27,342 nucleotides of DNA. It comes from Bermanella sp. Lineage in GTDB: Bacteria; Pseudomonadota; Gammaproteobacteria; Pseudomonadales; Oceanobacteraceae. Location: positions 1 to 27,342 of the forward strand of contig JAWUXY010000031.1 in NCBI GenBank assembly GCA_034111105.1. Reading direction: 5' to 3'. The first letter of the stretch is position 1; each line of letters opens with the position of its first letter. A model generated the notes under the pieces. The model did not search any database and was not told the origin of the DNA. It worked only from the letters and a program-made list of their open reading frames with translations. Positions 7,044-16,419 of this stretch are shown here, piece after piece. The position numbers and the translations under genes are program-made.

Positions 7044-7379
7044 ATGTTAGCGCAAGAAAGTTGTGAAGCGTGTCGTGCGGATGCGCCAAACGTGACGGAT
7101 ATTGAATTAACCGATTTTATGCCGGCCATACCTGAATGGCTTAATATAAATGAAGAAAGCGTTGCGAAGTTGCGCCGTAGCTTTGCTTTTAAAAGCTACA
7201 AGCAAGCGCTTAGTTTTACCAATGATCTGGCTTATTTAGCCGAGCAAGAAGATCATCATCCCGATATTTTATTACAATGGGGGAAAGTAACCGTTACATG
7301 GTGGACGCATAAAATTAATGGGTTACACAAAAACGATTTTATCATGGCTGCCAGAACAGACGCATTATACAAACATTAA
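7044..7379 (+). CDS. phhB: Pterin-4-alpha-carbinolamine dehydratase
   Basis: 111 aa. [42 protein letters not shown] is the PCD/DCoH family signature. Confidence 0.93.
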
Positions 7380-7714
7380 CGGCTGAGTCTTAATGTATCG
7401 ACTTTAAGTACTCGACCTTCACAGTCGCTTGTGATTACGGTGAGTGACAGACCACTTTTAAGTGCTTCAAGCGCCATTAAAAAGCGTCTTTGCGCGACCG
7501 TGTCATACTCACTGTATACGCGATAAACATTAGATGGCTTACCGCCACAGTTGTGTATCTTATTAGCCGAATGAATATCAAACGGCGCTTCTTCATCATC
7601 GACTCTTTGTTCTAAGCCGCTCACTGACAAGCCTTCTACTGCACGTTCATTTCCCCGAGCATTGGTCATAAAAGCGCAGACGCAGAGAATAATCATTAGT
7701 CGATGTAAAAACAT
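7376..7714 (-). CDS. Small secreted hypothetical protein
   Basis: 112-aa ORF with signal peptide [21 protein letters not shown] and two Cys in the mature part. Divergent from the five-gene operon; 4-nt convergent overlap with phhB. Confidence 0.5.
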
Positions 7715-7852
7715 TGTTGTCCTAATTTCAAGTCATCTTATCCTTATCTAAGTATCGACGTAAAAGCTGAAAACTAAAGGATTTTAACAACTAAACATAG
7801 CGTGTACTCATGCTTGAGCTATGCTTTGTAATTGAGTGTATGGCGAAAATGG

Positions 7853-8965
7853 ATGATGCCAAGGATGAAGCAGGACAACGGACTTTACTCGAATAAATAT
7901 GTAATTTTATCGGCGCTATTCTTTATATTATGCGCCATATTTTCGTCGTATGCCTTTTCTGAAACCCGAGTAGTGACATCAGATGTTCCCGGTTTTGGAT
8001 TGCCCCCTACCATGTATGCTGGCTTTTCTCGTCTATTAGATGACGAAAGTATCCTTGTACCCGAAGAGTTATTAGATGTTGATAAAAACATCAAACGTAT
8101 CGCATTTTATTTTAATGGCGATCGCCTGCATCGAAAAATCCCAAAACAAGTTCACTTAATGATTGAGAATAAATTGCTTGGCAAGTTCATGGGGTTAGGC
8201 CGATTTGAAGTGATCGATTGCATTGAGTGTCGTACTACCCGCGTTAATTTCGAAGACTCTCGTATGCTGATTAGCCAGAGTGCGCAAAGTAATCAGGACT
8301 TGCGTGATTTATCTAAAGATGTGCGAGCGGATGCTTTTTTGTTATGGAGCGCCAGTGTGCATGAAGACAAATTCACTATTAATTTACGATTAGTCAGCGC
8401 AAAAAGTAATGAATTAGTGTGGTTAAAAGAATATGCGAAAAAAACCACACGAGAACAAGAAGAGCTTGAATTTGAAAGTATTGAAATGGAAATGGTCGTC
8501 AGCTCATGGGGATTGGCCGCAGAGCGTGATGGCGTTGGAGCTGTCGAAGATGCCACGCTCAGTGGCGTGACCGCTTTTGGAATTCGACGCCGAGAATACA
8601 CCACTTTAAATAAGGATGTAGAATACAGTTTGGGCGTTGAATATTTTAGGAACTTCTCAAGCAGTGATGAATTTGATGTCAGTGGTTTTAATTTAGAAGG
8701 GCGAATATTTGTTAATATTTCTGCGTTAAAAGATTGGGTTAATACCAAAGCCTACGTAGGAATCGGCCAAGCCTTTTTCAGCGGCAGTCACGGTTTGATG
8801 ATGAAATTCGGTTTAGAGTTTCCATTTGTGACTAATGGCTTTATGGCGATTGGAGCCGTGTACTTGGTTAAAGAAGATGTTGAATGGGATAGTAATGCCG
8901 ATTATGAAGACAGCTCTGAATTTGGTGGTGCTGGTTTGGACTTAACCCTCGGCTATCGGTTCTAA
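7853..8965 (+). CDS. Signal-peptide protein with an outer-membrane beta-barrel-like C-terminal half (operon gene 1)
   Basis: The track starts at TTG 7832; in-frame ATGs occur at 7853, 7856 and 7865, so the start is uncertain. Leader VILSALFFILCAIFSSYAFS|ETR. The C-terminal ~150 aa show alternating hydrophobic/polar strands and end in ...LDLTLGYRF, the terminal aromatic typical of OMPs. The N-terminal half contains DAFLLWSASVHEDKFTINLRLVSAKSNELVW, reminiscent of TolB-N/LpoB/CsgG/FlgO-type folds (weak). Confidence 0.7.
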   Translation: MMPRMKQDNGLYSNKYVILSALFFILCAIFSSYAFSETRVVTSDVPGFGLPPTMYAGFSRLLDDESILVPEELLDVDKNIKRIAFYFNGDRLHRKIPKQVHLMIENKLLGKFMGLGRFEVIDCIECRTTRVNFEDSRMLISQSAQSNQDLRDLSKDVRADAFLLWSASVHEDKFTINLRLVSAKSNELVWLKEYAKKTTREQEELEFESIEMEMVVSSWGLAAERDGVGAVEDATLSGVTAFGIRRREYTTLNKDVEYSLGVEYFRNFSSSDEFDVSGFNLEGRIFVNISALKDWVNTKAYVGIGQAFFSGSHGLMMKFGLEFPFVTNGFMAIGAVYLVKEDVEWDSNADYEDSSEFGGAGLDLTLGYRF

Positions 8966-8975
8966 GGAATAAAAT

Positions 8976-9605
8976 ATGAAAACCATTTTATTACTCCTGT
9001 TTATAATGGTCGCTTGTTTAAGTGGCTGCTCGATTGAACAGCTGGCCATGGAAAAGGATCCATTTATGGAACAAAAACCAGCAGAAGATATCGATCCTTT
9101 AAATTCAGAGAGTGCGGAATACGCAAAAAACAATCATGGCGTTGTGAATATACACCGCCATGGCCCAGGTTATGACGTCATGATGATGCTGAACGCAGGC
9201 GAAAGCGATATTATCTTCAGCATGGATTTACCTGTAGGTGGCGCAACCTATATGCCAGAAATTTCAGAGCAAATGAAAGCACATCGAAAAAAAGGGAAGG
9301 GTTCTAATAACGCTGAAGAAGAGAATGATTTTTTTAATGAAAAAGCCTTATCACTTTTCTCTGATGCGACAAAACATATGCTCAGTGCACAGGCTTTGTT
9401 TTATCGTAAATCGTATTGGAAAGCACTCGAGCAAACGAACAAAGCAATGTCTCTAGTGCCGGCGTCTGCACAGGCTTATGCTTTGAAAGGCAGTATTTAT
9501 TACAAAATGGGCCGTAAAAAAGAAGCCAAAGTATCATGGCAGCAAGCATTGCAATTAGACCCTTCTTTAACGGAAGTTAAAGAGAGTTTAAAGCTCGTTA
9601 AGTAG
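8976..9605 (+). CDS. TPR-repeat lipoprotein (operon gene 2)
   Basis: AAGGA Shine-Dalgarno 10 nt after the gene 1 stop. Lipobox MVACLSGC. The C-terminus AQALFYRKSYWKALEQTNKAMSLVPASAQAYALKGSIYYKMGRKKEAKVSWQQALQLDP reads as about two TPR units. Confidence 0.75.
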   Translation: MKTILLLLFIMVACLSGCSIEQLAMEKDPFMEQKPAEDIDPLNSESAEYAKNNHGVVNIHRHGPGYDVMMMLNAGESDIIFSMDLPVGGATYMPEISEQMKAHRKKGKGSNNAEEENDFFNEKALSLFSDATKHMLSAQALFYRKSYWKALEQTNKAMSLVPASAQAYALKGSIYYKMGRKKEAKVSWQQALQLDPSLTEVKESLKLVK

Positions 9606-9614
9606 GGAATATCT

Positions 9615-11555
9615 ATGCTGAAAAAATATGGATTATTATGGGTAGTGTTAGCCAGTTTATCGTTAATAGCGCAGGCCGCGACGAACACGCCTGTTGAAGT
9701 ACAAACAAAAACCGATGACTTAGAAGAGCTACAGCTTAAATCACAACTAGAAGATAGTCTGGCTCGTGATATTCAGTCTTATCTTGGCCATAATCGATTT
9801 ATTGTCAACGTGAAAGTAAACCTTGAAAAAATTCGCCAAGTTATTAAAACAAAATCAAAACAATCAACACCATTATCTAAAACATACCAACCTACTTTTT
9901 TGCCAAAGCTCACGTTTCCTAATGCAGTTGAAGATGATACTTATGAGGTAGAAAGCTTACCCGGGTTGCCCTTTGTTGATATTCCGGGCGATAAAGAAAA
10001 AGACGCTGAACTGAAGTTTATGCGAGAACAGGTTGAACGTTTACAGCAAGAACAGCGTCAACCACGTTGGCAGGATAGAGAAAACGAAGATGCAAGCGGT
10101 AATGGTGGCTCAGAAGAAACCGTAGGGGTATTTAATCGTATTGCTAAACTAATGGTTACATTAGCGGTTGAAGAAAATGTGAGTGCAGAGCAAGAAGCTT
10201 TTTTAAGAAATTTAGTTTACCAAAAAGCGTCGCTTAATGACTTACGGGGTGATGAGCTTAAAATTATTAGAACACAGTTTTCCAGTATCCCTATAACGGA
10301 AAAAGAAAAGGAACAAATTGCGTCGCCGTTTTCTGATGAGTCAGCGCCGGCACAAAATTGGATGGATGAAAATTTCAATGCGCTATTGTTAGGGTTGTTA
10401 AGTTTATTAGCATTACTGCTAATTAGTTTGATTGTGTTATCAATGCGTAAAAAATCACAACCAAGCGAAGCACAAAATATGTCATCCAGTGACATATCAC
10501 ATACACCTAATGTGTTAGCCACTCCTGAAGCGGAAGGCCCAGACAGTAAGCTCATCATGCAAAAAACTCGGCAAGATATTATATCGCTCGGTTTAGGTCA
10601 GCCTCAGCATGTTCAAGGCACAATGGACCAATTATTGAGCCAAGAAGAAAAAATACCCATGGCGGCGTCTATTTATAAAGTATTGGGTCGCAGCTTGTTT
10701 CGCTCTATTTTTCCTAATATTGAGCAATTTCAGTTGCAAAGTATCATGGCTCACTTAGCCGATCAGCCGCCGGATGACGATCAGCAATTTCAAGACACTC
10801 AAGATTTTTATCAATTATTGCAAAAATCCGTGCAAGAAACAGCAGAAGTAAAATCGCACCCTTTTGAATTTTTAGGCAAATTAAATGACAGCCAAGTTTT
10901 GTATTTGATGCAACATGAAGATGCTCGCATTCAAGCTTTGGTGATTAGTCAACTGCAAGCGCAGCAAGCCGCGCGAGTACTCAATCGCATTAATGAAAAA
11001 CGCCAAGCCCAAGTCATTGCAGAGTTAGGCCAGTTTGAAACATTCCCGTTGGATACCTTTAAAGATGTCGCCGATCGTTTAGCTAAATCTGCATTAAACG
11101 TCCCTAGCTTTGAAAACGTTAATGCTGATGGTTTGCATATGTTAATGAACATGTTGGATAACATGAATTCAACCGAAGAGAACAAAGTATTAAAACGCTT
11201 AAAGCAAGATAAGCCGGATACGTTTTATAAGCTGCGCCAACAATATTTTACCTTTGCAGATGTTGTTAAAACCCCAAGACAAATTCTTAGTAACGCACTG
11301 CGTGAAGTGGAGCGCAGTTTCATTGGCCGTGCGATTTGTGGTACTCCTGATGATTTTAAAATTCATGTGTTGTCATCATTGACGCCCAAGTTGAAAGCCT
11401 TAGCAAAAGAGGACTTAAAGCGTTATGAAGGGCGCATTGGTGCCAAAGATGTGGAATCTGCTCGTAAAGCGATTGTGCATAAGTTGCGTGAGTATATTCA
11501 TACGGGCAAATTCTCTATGGACGAACTGCAAGTCAAAAAGCAGGCTGAGTCATGA
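9615..11555 (+). CDS. FliF-like/FliG-like fusion membrane protein (operon gene 3)
   Basis: 646 aa. N-terminal signal or anchor LLWVVLASLSLIAQA. Periplasmic segments LEDSLARDIQSYLGHNRFIVNVKVNL and IAKLMVTLAVEENVSAEQEAFLRNLVYQKASLNDLRGDELKIIRTQF resemble FliF/YscJ ring-building motifs (compare FliF IKRLSVAVVV...RGDTLNVV..F). TM helix LLLGLLSLLALLLISLIVLSM. The cytoplasmic ~355 aa resemble FliG N/M/C, e.g. VLYLMQHEDARIQALVISQLQAQQAARVLNRINEKRQAQVIAEL and YFTFADVVKTPRQILSNALREVERSFIGRAICGTPDDFKIHVLSSLTPKLKALAKEDLKRYEGRIGAKDVESARKAIVHKLRE. Coding is near certain; the domain assignment is by eye. Confidence 0.75.
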   Translation: MLKKYGLLWVVLASLSLIAQAATNTPVEVQTKTDDLEELQLKSQLEDSLARDIQSYLGHNRFIVNVKVNLEKIRQVIKTKSKQSTPLSKTYQPTFLPKLTFPNAVEDDTYEVESLPGLPFVDIPGDKEKDAELKFMREQVERLQQEQRQPRWQDRENEDASGNGGSEETVGVFNRIAKLMVTLAVEENVSAEQEAFLRNLVYQKASLNDLRGDELKIIRTQFSSIPITEKEKEQIASPFSDESAPAQNWMDENFNALLLGLLSLLALLLISLIVLSMRKKSQPSEAQNMSSSDISHTPNVLATPEAEGPDSKLIMQKTRQDIISLGLGQPQHVQGTMDQLLSQEEKIPMAASIYKVLGRSLFRSIFPNIEQFQLQSIMAHLADQPPDDDQQFQDTQDFYQLLQKSVQETAEVKSHPFEFLGKLNDSQVLYLMQHEDARIQALVISQLQAQQAARVLNRINEKRQAQVIAELGQFETFPLDTFKDVADRLAKSALNVPSFENVNADGLHMLMNMLDNMNSTEENKVLKRLKQDKPDTFYKLRQQYFTFADVVKTPRQILSNALREVERSFIGRAICGTPDDFKIHVLSSLTPKLKALAKEDLKRYEGRIGAKDVESARKAIVHKLREYIHTGKFSMDELQVKKQAES

Positions 11556-12349
11556 TTAGTTTTAGTACGCTCATTGGTATCACAGCAGGTATTGGCTTAT
11601 TTGTTTTGGCCATTGCCAGTAGTACAGATAACTACATGATGTTTTTAAATCTTGCCAGCGCCATGATGGTGATCGGCAGTACGTTTGCAGCATCGCTCAT
11701 TAGCTTTAGTTTTTTAGAAGTGATGCACGCTGTGAAAGCCATGTTTCAAACGCTTGCGGCTGGGCATACGACACAAGTGCATTTACGCGACCTAGTAAAG
11801 CGCTTTGTGGAATTTAGCCGCATTTATCGTGATGGTGGTATTTCTGCCTTAGAAGATAGTTTAAGCAATAAAGAAAAAAATGATGATTTCTTGTCGTTAG
11901 GGCTAGAGCTAATGGGCTCGGGTTACAAGCAAAGTGATATCCGTGTGATTATGGGGGATGCCATGGACAGCCATTGGCAGCGCCAAAGTCTAGAAGGTAA
12001 AATCCTTAATACCATGGGCATTTATGCACCCGGCTTTGGCATGGTGGGCACCATTGTTGGTTTGATTATCATGCTGGATAACATGGGCGATGATATGGCC
12101 AATCTAGGCAAAGGGTTAGCGTTGGCGTTAATTACGACGCTTTATGGAGTGTTACTCGCTAATCTTTTGTTTAAACCCACTGCGGCGCAAGTGACAGAGA
12201 AACAAGAGCAAGAGTATTTCCGTAATCAATTAATAACCGATGGTTTTGTATTACTGGCTGAAAAAAAGGACGCACTTGTAATGCAAGATCGCCTTAATGC
12301 GTATGTGAAACCCAACAAACGCTTCACCATAGTCGAAACCAATGAGTGA
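11552..12349 (+). CDS. MotA/PomA-type stator channel subunit (MotA/TolQ/ExbB family; operon gene 4)
   Basis: ATGA start/stop overlap with gene 3. Four hydrophobic helices with a ~100-aa loop between TM2 and TM3. YAPGFGMVGTIVGLIIML...GLALALITTLYGVLLANLLFKP is the MotA/PomA core with both conserved prolines. The loop YRDGGISALED parallels PomA ARREGLLSLED. Confidence 0.9.
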   Translation: MISFSTLIGITAGIGLFVLAIASSTDNYMMFLNLASAMMVIGSTFAASLISFSFLEVMHAVKAMFQTLAAGHTTQVHLRDLVKRFVEFSRIYRDGGISALEDSLSNKEKNDDFLSLGLELMGSGYKQSDIRVIMGDAMDSHWQRQSLEGKILNTMGIYAPGFGMVGTIVGLIIMLDNMGDDMANLGKGLALALITTLYGVLLANLLFKPTAAQVTEKQEQEYFRNQLITDGFVLLAEKKDALVMQDRLNAYVKPNKRFTIVETNE

Positions 12350-13022
12350 CAAGACTTACAAGCGAGGCTTAAGGCGTCGCCGTGCTACGTTTGATGCTGA
12401 CGGTGAAGGTTGGTTAGTAACCTATGCCGATGCCATTACATTGCTACTGGCGTTTTTTGTGATGATTCTTTCGGTATCGGATCTCAATCAAGGCAAGATC
12501 GAAGCCTTAAAAGAAGGCTTAGCGAGCATTATCTCAGGCAAGCAAGCTCAAACCCCGTTTAACGATATTAAAGACGCGCTGGATGACATTGTTAAGCAGC
12601 ACGGCATGCAAGACTATGTGGCGGTTGATATCGATATGAAGGGGGTTCGGGTTGAATTCTCTAATTTCTCTTTATATCAGTCAGGCAGTGCCGCAATTAA
12701 ACCCGAAGCCTTGCCCATGCTGGCTGAGGTCACAAGAGTTATTAAAGACACCAGTTCATCGACGCACCTCATCGAAATAGAAGGACACACAGACGATGTG
12801 CCCATACATACCGAGCGCTTCCCTTCGAACTGGGAACTCAGCGCTTCGCGCGCCAGTAATGTGGTCAAATACCTTTTGGGCAAGGGCGTTGATAAAGAGC
12901 GATTGAAGGCGTCAGGTTACGCCGACTCTCGCCCTAAGGCTGTACTTGAGCCGGGGCAGGCTTTTACTGAAGACGACAGGGCGGCCAACAGGCGAGTCGT
13001 TATTTATGTAAAGCGTTACTAA
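12342..13022 (+). CDS. MotB/OmpA-type stator anchor subunit (operon gene 5)
   Basis: 8-nt overlap with gene 4. GWLVTYADAITLLLAFFVMIL is the MotB TM with the conserved Asp. The C-terminal OmpA-like peptidoglycan-binding domain includes IEGHTDDVP, NWELSASRASNVVKYL and NRRVVIYV. Confidence 0.9.
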   Translation: MSDKTYKRGLRRRRATFDADGEGWLVTYADAITLLLAFFVMILSVSDLNQGKIEALKEGLASIISGKQAQTPFNDIKDALDDIVKQHGMQDYVAVDIDMKGVRVEFSNFSLYQSGSAAIKPEALPMLAEVTRVIKDTSSSTHLIEIEGHTDDVPIHTERFPSNWELSASRASNVVKYLLGKGVDKERLKASGYADSRPKAVLEPGQAFTEDDRAANRRVVIYVKRY

Positions 13023-13050
13023 CATCTATAAAACCCGTAACTCCTATTTC

Positions 13051-13084
13051 AGGCCCTATGTGAAAGCATAGGGCTGTTTTTTTG
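13051..13084 (+). terminator. Rho-independent terminator of the five-gene operon
   Basis: gccctatg (13053-13060), loop tgaaag, catagggc (13067-13074), then a T7 run (13077-13083). Confidence 0.75.
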
Positions 13085-13310
13085 ATGGGTAGTTTTTGCT
13101 TGGTCTGCCATAGGAATTCTTTTGTATTTTGCTCCATTATTTGAGCGATCAACAGATTACTTAATGACCGATTTATTGCTTTTAGTTGTGCAGTTATAAG
13201 TAAAAAGTACTCGGTTACTAGGTGATGGGTTTATAGCAGGTGCCTAAAGTGGCGAATGATGACTATCTCGCCTGAAAAATAGACTATTCTGAATATTATG
13301 AAAAAGATGA

Positions 13311-15077
<1,767 letters not shown>

Positions 15078-15102
15078 ATTTTTACGATTAACCGTTATTT
15101 GA

Positions 15103-16419
<1,317 letters not shown>

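Follow-up and report, generated by a model that had tools for sequence, protein, structure and literature searches.

A FliF-FliG fusion and a predicted flagellar-type stator with conserved core interface charges share a five-gene cassette in Bermanella and its relatives

A stretch of 27,342 nucleotides from Bermanella sp. (contig JAWUXY010000031.1 of assembly GCA_034111105.1; hereafter the window, whose positions are used throughout) carries a cassette of five closely packed plus-strand genes at 7832-13022, which we read as one operon. The gaps between genes 1 and 2 and between genes 2 and 3 are 9-10 nt long, genes 3 and 4 overlap as ATGA, and the coding regions of genes 4 and 5 overlap by 8 nt. 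A first-pass annotation had singled out one charged segment in gene 3 and one in gene 4 as the two conserved sides of a flagellar rotor-stator electrostatic interface, and had argued from them that the stator encoded by genes 4 and 5 engages the product of gene 3. The analysis reported here bears on both claims and on the nature of the cassette as a whole. The five genes, with the parts of genes 3 and 4 on which the argument turns, are as follows.

7832-8965, plus strand: gene 1, an outer-membrane barrel protein with a FlgO/LpoB/PelC-like domain
8976-9605, plus strand: gene 2, a tetratricopeptide repeat (TPR) lipoprotein
9615-11555, plus strand: gene 3, a FliF-FliG fusion of 646 aa
9690-10280, plus strand: ring-building motif (RBM) of gene 3, residues 26-222, with the order alpha-beta-[insertion]-beta-alpha-beta and two long strands in the AlphaFold2 (AF2) model
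10368-10454, plus strand: transmembrane helix of gene 3, residues 252-280, from a hydropathy scan (AF2 helix 245-278), aligned to the second transmembrane helix (TM2) of FliF
10539-10838, plus strand: five-helix cytoplasmic domain of gene 3, residues 309-408, from the length of the Foldseek alignment
10890-11102, plus strand: FliG middle domain of gene 3 (Pfam FliG_M, E 1.5e-12, 48 bits against a cut-off of 25)
11196-11516, plus strand: FliG C-terminal (torque) domain of gene 3 (Pfam FliG_C, E 1.8e-17, 64 bits against a cut-off of 23.3)
11382-11441, plus strand: torque-helix segment of gene 3, TPKLKALAKEDLKRYEGRIG, residues 590-609, by in-frame translation
11552-12349, plus strand: gene 4, a MotA/PomA-type stator A subunit of 265 aa
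11828-11857, plus strand: cytoplasmic-loop segment of gene 4, RDGGISALED, residues 93-102, by in-frame translation
12342-13022, plus strand: gene 5, a MotB/PomB-type stator B subunit

Gene 3 is a natural fusion in which a signal peptide, a periplasmic domain like the RBM3/S-ring part of FliF, one transmembrane helix and FliG follow one another in a single chain. Its AF2 model (mean predicted local distance difference test score [pLDDT] 75, predicted template modeling score [pTM] 0.31, linkers at low confidence) begins with a signal-peptide-like helix, which is followed by a periplasmic alpha-beta unit, the transmembrane helix and an all-helical cytoplasmic region (residues 309-644). In Foldseek searches, the periplasmic unit matched the FliF S-ring/RBM3 structures 8z5v, 8z4g, 6sd3 and 8zdt (E 6e-4 to 5e-3, TMt ~0.46) and also weakly resembled SpoIIIAG. 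Pfam YscJ_FliF_C matched 27 of 36 gene 3 family members (best E 1.6e-9), with the copy in the window scoring 17.5 bits, under the cut-off of 23.8. Furthermore, hhalign placed gene 3 residues 175-282 on residues 373-473 of Escherichia coli FliF (E 8e-5), a span that covers the RGD motif and TM2, and the RGD that is invariant in the gene 3 family aligns with that of the E. coli protein. The periplasmic part comprises only ~220 residues after the signal-peptide-like N terminus, and gene 3 gave no Pfam YscJ_FliF match that would indicate RBM1/RBM2 (SctJ-like) or an N-terminal TM1. Within the disordered and otherwise poorly conserved periplasmic insertion, an LPGL(P) motif (residues 115-119, 9957-9971) is near-invariant; the TPR lipoprotein encoded by gene 2 may bind it as a peptide ligand.

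The FliG part of gene 3 is not a separate soluble protein and lies in the same open reading frame (ORF), behind the transmembrane helix. Foldseek aligned the cytoplasmic region with full-length FliG over ~315 of 321-331 residues (E 1e-9), and the torque domain matched 1qc7 and 8ucs_H with template modeling (TM) scores of 0.82-0.87 and a root mean square deviation (rmsd) of 1.8-1.9 Å. We tentatively take the five-helix domain at residues 309-408 as the equivalent of the FliG N-domain on the basis of the Foldseek span; at the sequence level this equivalence found no support. The Pfam FliG_N matches seen in 22 of the 36 members fall on residues 441-532 and overlap the middle domain, and we discounted them as internal ARM-repeat similarity. 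Gene 3 scores under the NCBIfam FliG equivalog cut-offs (TIGR00207, 79.4 vs 226.7; NF004260, 29.6 vs 550). In addition, the FliM-binding EHPQR motif of FliG is replaced by E-[DE]-x-R...E: the family columns at FliG E125, H126, P127, Q128 and R160 are E, D/E, variable, R and E, and the same holds in 118 wider representatives. This replacement speaks against a FliM/FliN switch.

Genes 4 and 5 are predicted to encode a 5:2-type stator in which the channel aspartate, the plug and the peptidoglycan anchor are intact. Gene 4 matched Pfam MotA_ExbB (E 1e-21, 77 bits) and has four transmembrane helices, and its residues P160 and P209, which correspond to MotA P173 and P222, are invariant (44/44). Gene 5 matched Pfam MotB_plug (E 2e-14, 53 bits) and the peptidoglycan-binding OmpA family (E 1e-16, 61 bits); its transmembrane residue Asp30 (codon 12429-12431), the counterpart of E. 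coli MotB D32, is D in 44 of 44. Gene 4 also carries a threonine triad, T167/T195/T196, equivalent to PomA T158/T185/T186, of which T167 and T196 are invariant (44/44). A triad of this kind is said to mark all sodium-driven stators (10.1101/2022.11.25.517900), which suggests that the cassette stator is sodium driven, like PomAB and MotPS. As with gene 3, the scores of genes 4 and 5 lie under the NCBIfam equivalog cut-offs for flagellar stators (MotP, 162.9 vs 394; MotA, 141.2 vs 340; PomA, 135.6 vs 341; MotD, 180 vs 283 bits).

The torque-helix segment of gene 3 had been aligned with FliG by eye, and four methods agree on the same register. A phmmer comparison with solved FliG structures set the TPK of gene 3 over SKR and its KEDL over KDEL of Thermotoga maritima FliG (E 7e-22); MAFFT, with E. 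coli FliG from MG1655 as reference, hhalign, with a profile of 105 gene 3 family sequences against E. coli FliG, and Foldseek, which laid the gene 3 C-terminal domain on the MotAB-bound FliGc of 8UCS (TM score 0.82, rmsd 1.9 Å), gave the same result. In E. coli FliG numbering, K592 corresponds to R281, E599 to D288, D600 to D289, C575 to K264 and G609 to R297. The copy in the window therefore has three of the five classical FliG torque charges (K264, R281, D288, D289 and R297), and these are the basic residue and the acidic ED pair that had been recognized at the outset. The replacement of a classical charge by Cys575 (codon 11337-11339) is specific to the family, and in the wider family the FliG K264 position is hydrophobic.

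On the stator side, phmmer alignments to PomA (8bri) and MotA (8ucs and 6ysf), with E values from 2.6e-36 to 1.8e-29, and the MAFFT alignment with E. coli MotA place R93 at MotA R90 and PomA R88, and E101 at MotA E98 and PomA E96, so that the reported R93-x7-E101 spacing holds at the expected positions. The residues of the loop (YRDGGISALED) were likewise as described, except that Y92 lies 3 nt upstream of the 11828-11857 interval that had been assigned to the whole motif. Nearby, D94 falls at PomA K89, D102 at PomA E97 and S123 at PomA D114. In flagella, MotA R90 is paired with FliG D289 and MotA E98 with FliG R281, according to two reports (PMC7564593 and PMC12505986), and in the MotAB-FliGc complex the charges at the two ends of the torque helix are gripped by adjacent MotA subunits (PMC11302681). 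PomA K89 and D114 have been reported to be interface residues in Vibrio, and D114 to be indispensable there (10.1101/2022.11.25.517900). A chance occurrence of the two motifs was ruled out, since the R-x7-E and K...ED patterns sit inside full-length homologous alignments.

We collected 39 related loci from species genomes and 61 from metagenomes, and nine distant loci were reached via relatives of gene 1 or gene 3 (loci L047 and L044 are the same contig). The gene 3 relatives that were found first belong to Bermanella, Oceaniserpentilla, Oleispira, Thalassolituus and their allies. When 1.84 billion representatives were searched exhaustively with HMMER, 55 clusters were returned at E <= 1e-30, and ~119 of the best 150 matches were proteins of 500-780 aa matched from the RBM through FliG_C. 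Genes 1 to 5 were found in identical order at all 39 genome loci and at each of the 31 metagenome loci whose length could accommodate all five, and all nine distant loci keep the five genes. Two further orders were seen, motA-motB-gene1-gene2-gene3 at L049, beside polysaccharide export genes, and gene3-gene1-gene2-motA-motB at L050 (beside fliR/flhB), L051 and L052, the last in a Fibrobacteria metagenome-assembled genome (MAG). The five genes thus co-occur in ~90 loci in three gene orders, with ORFs that are intact throughout and with the key residues kept while identity drops to 20-35%. This co-occurrence through rearrangement is strong evidence that the five-gene cassette is a functional module. 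It follows from the linkage, together with the overlapping coding regions, that the stator of genes 4 and 5 likely engages gene 3, presumably by physical contact, and linkage outweighs the charges alone as evidence that the two work together. The earlier argument for engagement is thus supported in part, and by linkage more than by the charges on which it was built, as their retention alone leaves an ordinary FliG open as the partner.

Conservation was assessed over 87 paired loci, which supplied 89 unique sequences of gene 3 and 81 of gene 4. Gene 3 position 592, at FliG R281, is basic in 85 of 89 sequences (K in 78 and R in 7; 96%), and position 600, at D289, is acidic in 79 (E in 52 and D in 27; 89%). 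In gene 4, position 93, at MotA R90, is R in 69, K in 5 and H in 3 of the 81 sequences (R or K in 74; 91%), and position 101, at MotA E98, is acidic in 77 (E in 73 and D in 4; 95%). R93 and E101 lie within the top 22% of cytoplasmic-loop columns by conservation, and K592 lies within the top 19% of FliG_C columns. Two further gene 3 positions are near-invariant in a family-specific manner, 602 (K or R in 80/89) and 605 (E in 79/89). Judged from these alignments, the core of the interface is conserved and its periphery is not. The claim that both sides are conserved accordingly holds for the primary pairs R90-D289 and E98-R281, whose charges stand at equivalent positions and are kept at 89-96%, and fails for the equivalents of FliG D288, K264 and R297 and of PomA K89 and D114.

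Genes 1 and 2 complete the module. Gene 1 is present in all loci and probably starts at an ATG a few codons downstream of its TTG. Its AF2 model (mean pLDDT 80) has an alpha/beta periplasmic domain at ~89-204 and a C-terminal eight-stranded barrel at ~214-376; by Foldseek, the barrel matched NspA, OmpX, Ail and the OmpA transmembrane domain, and the N-terminal part matched LpoB (4q6l, TMt 0.62), PelC and the TolB N-domain. No Pfam family scored above its cut-off in gene 1, and the sub-threshold matches among 65 family members were to FlgO (42), FlgT_M (15), LpoB (6) and CsgG (5). An identification of gene 1 as FlgO was rejected because these matches are below the cut-off and the fold is common to LpoB, PelC and the TolB N-domain, and we retain it as a fold-level resemblance. 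The periplasmic domain contains a CxxC motif (CIEC, C130-x-x-C133, 8219-8230) that is invariant across the 65 homologues and could be a disulfide or metal site. Gene 2 has the lipobox LSGC and C-terminal TPR repeats (Pfam TPR_1, E 3e-10), and its homologues are found at every locus, including those with rearranged orders.

The remainder of the 27-kb window consists of housekeeping genes, with maf, sodB, fumarase and pcd upstream of the cassette and pyrG, eno, ftsB, ispDF, truD, surE, pcm, nlpD and rpoS downstream of it. No export gate, rod, hook, filament or FliM/FliN gene was found within the window, and the same genes are absent from the flanks of the orthologous loci, with fliR/flhB beside L050 as the sole exception. 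Two features border the cassette.

7376-7714, minus strand: divergent ORF of 112 aa with a signal-peptide-like N terminus, between the pterin dehydratase gene and gene 1
13052-13085, plus strand: intrinsic-terminator-like element between gene 5 and pyrG, made up of a strong hairpin (13052-13075) and a T-run

In both the Bermanella and the Oleispira/Thalassolituus clades, the divergent ORF stays beside the cassette, at no fewer than 22 of the 39 genome loci, and it is a possible accessory or sixth component. The pterin-4a-carbinolamine dehydratase gene (7044-7379) lies directly upstream of the cassette in about two-thirds of the 39 genome loci, and it is found two genes upstream at the distant locus L051 (6083-6430), despite the other gene order there; its recurrence is probably a coincidence. 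The pyrG ORF as listed (13323-15077) begins ~40 codons ahead of the conserved N terminus. Its true start is probably the ATG at 13446, which would leave space for a terminator and a promoter after gene 5. Downstream of rpoS, an ORF at 24527-24964 encodes a RebB ("killing trait", R-body) domain (E 1e-24) and is preceded by a DUF3127 ORF at 23976-24362.

The flanks of the cassette vary by lineage and include pyrG-eno, alkaline phosphatase, exopolysaccharide (EPS) export genes, fliR/flhB with a GGDEF regulator and a ~1045-aa protein. At L049, the neighbors are Wza/Wzc/Wzy-type polysaccharide export genes (9614-16130 of that locus), and at L050, fliR/flhB are accompanied by a response-regulator diguanylate cyclase (157-2019 and 8192-9700). 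Downstream of the cassette at L042, L044 and L047 are the ~1045-aa protein, which has a weak Glucodextran_B match only, and a lipoprotein. Across the flanks compared, no common output gene emerged.

We consider it probable (roughly 60%) that the two charged segments together make up a rotor-stator contact of the flagellar type, carried by a self-contained five-gene operon that is not a flagellum. In Oleispira antarctica, a complete flagellar gene cluster lies elsewhere in the genome, separate from the cassette (PMC3759055). Pentamers of the MotA family rotate around the B dimer and push the FliG torque helix, as stated in two reports (PMC11302681 and PMC12704724). By the same token, ion flow would turn the gene 4 pentamer, and R93 and E101 of neighboring gene 4 subunits would grip the torque helix at D600 (plus E599 in this clade) and at K592. 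A ring of gene 3 subunits would thereby be driven with no FliM/FliN switch and no switching, and its periplasmic collar and LPGL(P) insertion would contact the products of genes 2 and 1 and pass the motion to the outer membrane. The homology, the residue equivalence and its conservation, the operon structure, the obligatory linkage and the listing of two O. antarctica proteins in a shotgun-proteome table are shown; the physical contact, ring formation, rotation and outer-membrane coupling in this scheme are steps that we infer.

A number of observations weigh against this reading, and the first group concerns the periphery of the interface. Gene 3 position 599 (FliG D288) is acidic in only 29 of 89 sequences (33%) and is otherwise A, S or N; position 575 (K264) is Cys in 73 of 89; and position 609 (R297) is A, S or G, not basic. 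In gene 4, position 94 (PomA K89) is Q, D or S, that is, charge reversed or neutral, and position 123 (PomA D114) is S, A or T, not acidic. Farther out, the R281 position is basic in 104 of 118 deeper gene 3 family representatives, with only 69 of them acidic at 288 or 289, the acidic pair being lost in ~40%. At the nine distant loci, the MotA-side pattern of a basic residue followed eight residues on by an acidic one is recognizable with the basic residue shifted or missing, and the acidic pair on the FliG side is often absent. Retention of R93 and E101 by descent or for a structural role is also conceivable. A second group concerns the machine itself: the formation of a ring by gene 3 is an argument from fold similarity alone, with a model pTM of 0.31; the cassette comes with neither a rod nor an export gate, and with no evident output protein for the motor to turn; and the fliR/flhB genes that adjoin the cassette at L050 keep a flagellar link possible at that locus.

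Covariation between the two partners belongs on the same side of the balance. In the Bermanella clade, the torque helix has extra basic residues (K/R598, R603 and R607) and the stator loop has extra acidic ones (D94 and D102), and in the Oleispira/Thalassolituus clade, neutral residues occupy those sites in both proteins. The net charges of the two partners are anticorrelated, with a naive Spearman coefficient of -0.70, which arises from essentially this one split between the two clades. When each of 12 lineages was counted once, rho was -0.12 to -0.30 and not significant, and we therefore dropped charge compensation as proof of contact and regard it as no more than suggestive.

An alternative that keeps the contact and gives up the rotation is that the stator docks on the FliG-like domain of gene 3 without turning a ring and acts as a force transducer on the gene 2/gene 1 complex, in the style of ExbBD-TonB or TolQR-TolA. 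The envelope-spanning architecture, with its outer-membrane barrel and TPR lipoprotein, would suit such a device, as would the lack of rod, bearing and filament genes, the position of L049 beside polysaccharide export genes, and the long disordered periplasmic insertion, whose LPGL(P) motif could be a TPR ligand. We nevertheless regard it as unlikely: the periplasmic domain of gene 3 is of the S-ring RBM3 type, and such domains form rings of 33-35 subunits in solved flagellar structures; rotary coupling is the only setting in which the FliG torque domain is known; and gene 3 is without a TonB- or TolA-like extended periplasmic linker.

Across ~90 loci and three orders, the stator always comes with gene 3, the TPR lipoprotein and the barrel protein; this also tells against a second alternative, in which genes 4 and 5 encode the second stator of an ordinary flagellum, R93 and E101 contact a true FliG, and gene 3 serves as a regulator, a decoy or a stator store. 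In its favor, the genome paper of O. antarctica credits the organism with two stator systems, MotAB and PomAB, for a single flagellum (PMC3759055). Genes 4 and 5 are also of the flagellar type, with a plug, an OmpA domain and the residues of the torque interface, and the distant locus L050 adjoins fliR/flhB. The cassette of strain RB-8 comprises OLEAN_C05040-C05080, where gene 1 is OLEAN_C05040 and gene 3 is OLEAN_C05060 ("FliG-like protein"). One of the two stators credited to the organism may be the cassette stator, which would make the dual-stator inference doubtful. Against this alternative, the torque helix of gene 3 is kept under selection, the stator scores below the MotP, PomA and MotD equivalog cut-offs, and the D94 charge reversal at PomA K89 fits a shared flagellar rotor poorly. 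Taken together, these points make an auxiliary flagellar stator improbable. If the cluster were the decaying remnant of a second flagellum, its charges kept only by recent descent, the presence of flagellar homologues on their own would be accounted for; this is very improbable given intact ORFs in ~90 loci, key residues kept at 20-35% identity, five genes that stay together in three orders, one locus in a Fibrobacteria MAG, and the listing of OLEAN_C05040 and OLEAN_C05060, as presence only, in a shotgun-proteome table of O. antarctica (PMC7318663, supplement).

Returning to the rotor-stator contact outside the flagellum, we read the locus as flagellar rotor-stator parts in a probable non-flagellar assembly, and it merits attention for this nature more than for its charges. 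Somewhat short of even odds, in our estimate, is the further proposal that the cassette is an unrecognized filament-less rotary nanomachine made up of a minimal FliF-FliG ring, a sodium-type stator and an outer-membrane complex, carried by Oceanospirillales and by at least one Fibrobacteria MAG. Such a machine would be either a set of flagellar motor parts redeployed for a non-motility task in the envelope or a surviving relative of a pre-flagellar rotor-stator core. To our knowledge, torque generation by FliG and MotA is known only from flagella, and the Ton, Tol, Gld, Agl and Zor motors use other partners. If the reading is right, the cassette is the first candidate for use of the FliG-MotA interface outside the flagellum. 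Gene 3 would offer structural and biophysical work a naturally minimal, one-polypeptide rotor with no switch or export gate, and the family would be a natural test of which torque charges are essential, as only the equivalents of R281, D289 and MotA R90/E98 persist. The cassette would also serve as a comparator for hypotheses on the origin of the flagellar motor core, and it is a caution that a MotAB pair should not automatically be scored as an additional flagellar stator. A published description of the cassette was not found in the literature searched, most subscription journals being outside its reach, and a recent survey of MotAB evolution treats the flagellar-type branch as flagellar and mentions no such cassette (PMC12505986).

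Of the known systems, the flagellar FliF/FliG rotor with MotAB or PomAB (8UCS) shares the most with the cassette: the torque helix and the folds of FliG_M and FliG_C, an S-ring-type RBM3, a 5:2 stator with channel Asp, plug and OmpA-like anchor, and the equivalents of MotA R90/E98 and FliG R281/D289. The cassette differs in that its FliF and FliG parts form one chain, RBM1/RBM2 and EHPQR are missing, counterparts of K264 and R297 have been lost, and that of D288 varies; genes for FliM/N, an export gate, a rod, a hook or a filament do not lie nearby, and the barrel protein and TPR lipoprotein are dedicated outer-membrane partners.

The closest natural analogue of gene 3 is the FliF-FliG protein of Chlamydiaceae (Bergeron 2016, PMC4768692), which likewise joins a shortened FliF periplasmic region and a FliG-derived cytoplasmic region in a single chain, in a context without a flagellum. 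That protein, in contrast, is of ~330 aa, crosses the membrane with two helices, has RBM2, one more RBM and, from FliG, a homologue of the middle domain only, lacks a torque domain and a linked MotAB, and has been proposed to have an injectisome role (PMC4768692). Engineered FliF-FliG fusions of Salmonella and Vibrio assemble rings, according to the reports (PMC6079021, PMC10941966 and PMC11481574), and the periplasmic domain of gene 3 matches the S-ring of such constructs (PDB 8z4d/8z4g). They differ from gene 3 in being laboratory fusions of full-length proteins that retain RBM1-3 and FliG_N. On the outer-membrane side, the periplasmic domain of gene 1 recalls the Vibrio H-ring proteins FlgO and FlgT through its weak matches to FlgO (42/65) and FlgT_M (15/65); in contrast to them, gene 1 also carries the eight-stranded barrel, and its fold is common to LpoB, PelC, CsgG and the TolB N-domain.

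ExbBD-TonB, TolQR-TolA, GldLM, AglRQS-Glt and ZorAB resemble the cassette in combining an ion-driven unit of the MotAB family with a dedicated envelope-spanning partner, and Glt also has outer-membrane and TPR lipoprotein accessories, the match of gene 2 to GltE being weak and far under the cut-off. These non-flagellar 5:2 motors belong to a generic Exb/Tol-like branch (a distinction drawn in PMC12505986) and have no FliG coupling, whereas the stator of the cassette is from the flagellar branch, has a plug and an OmpA domain, and is partnered with a FliG torque domain.

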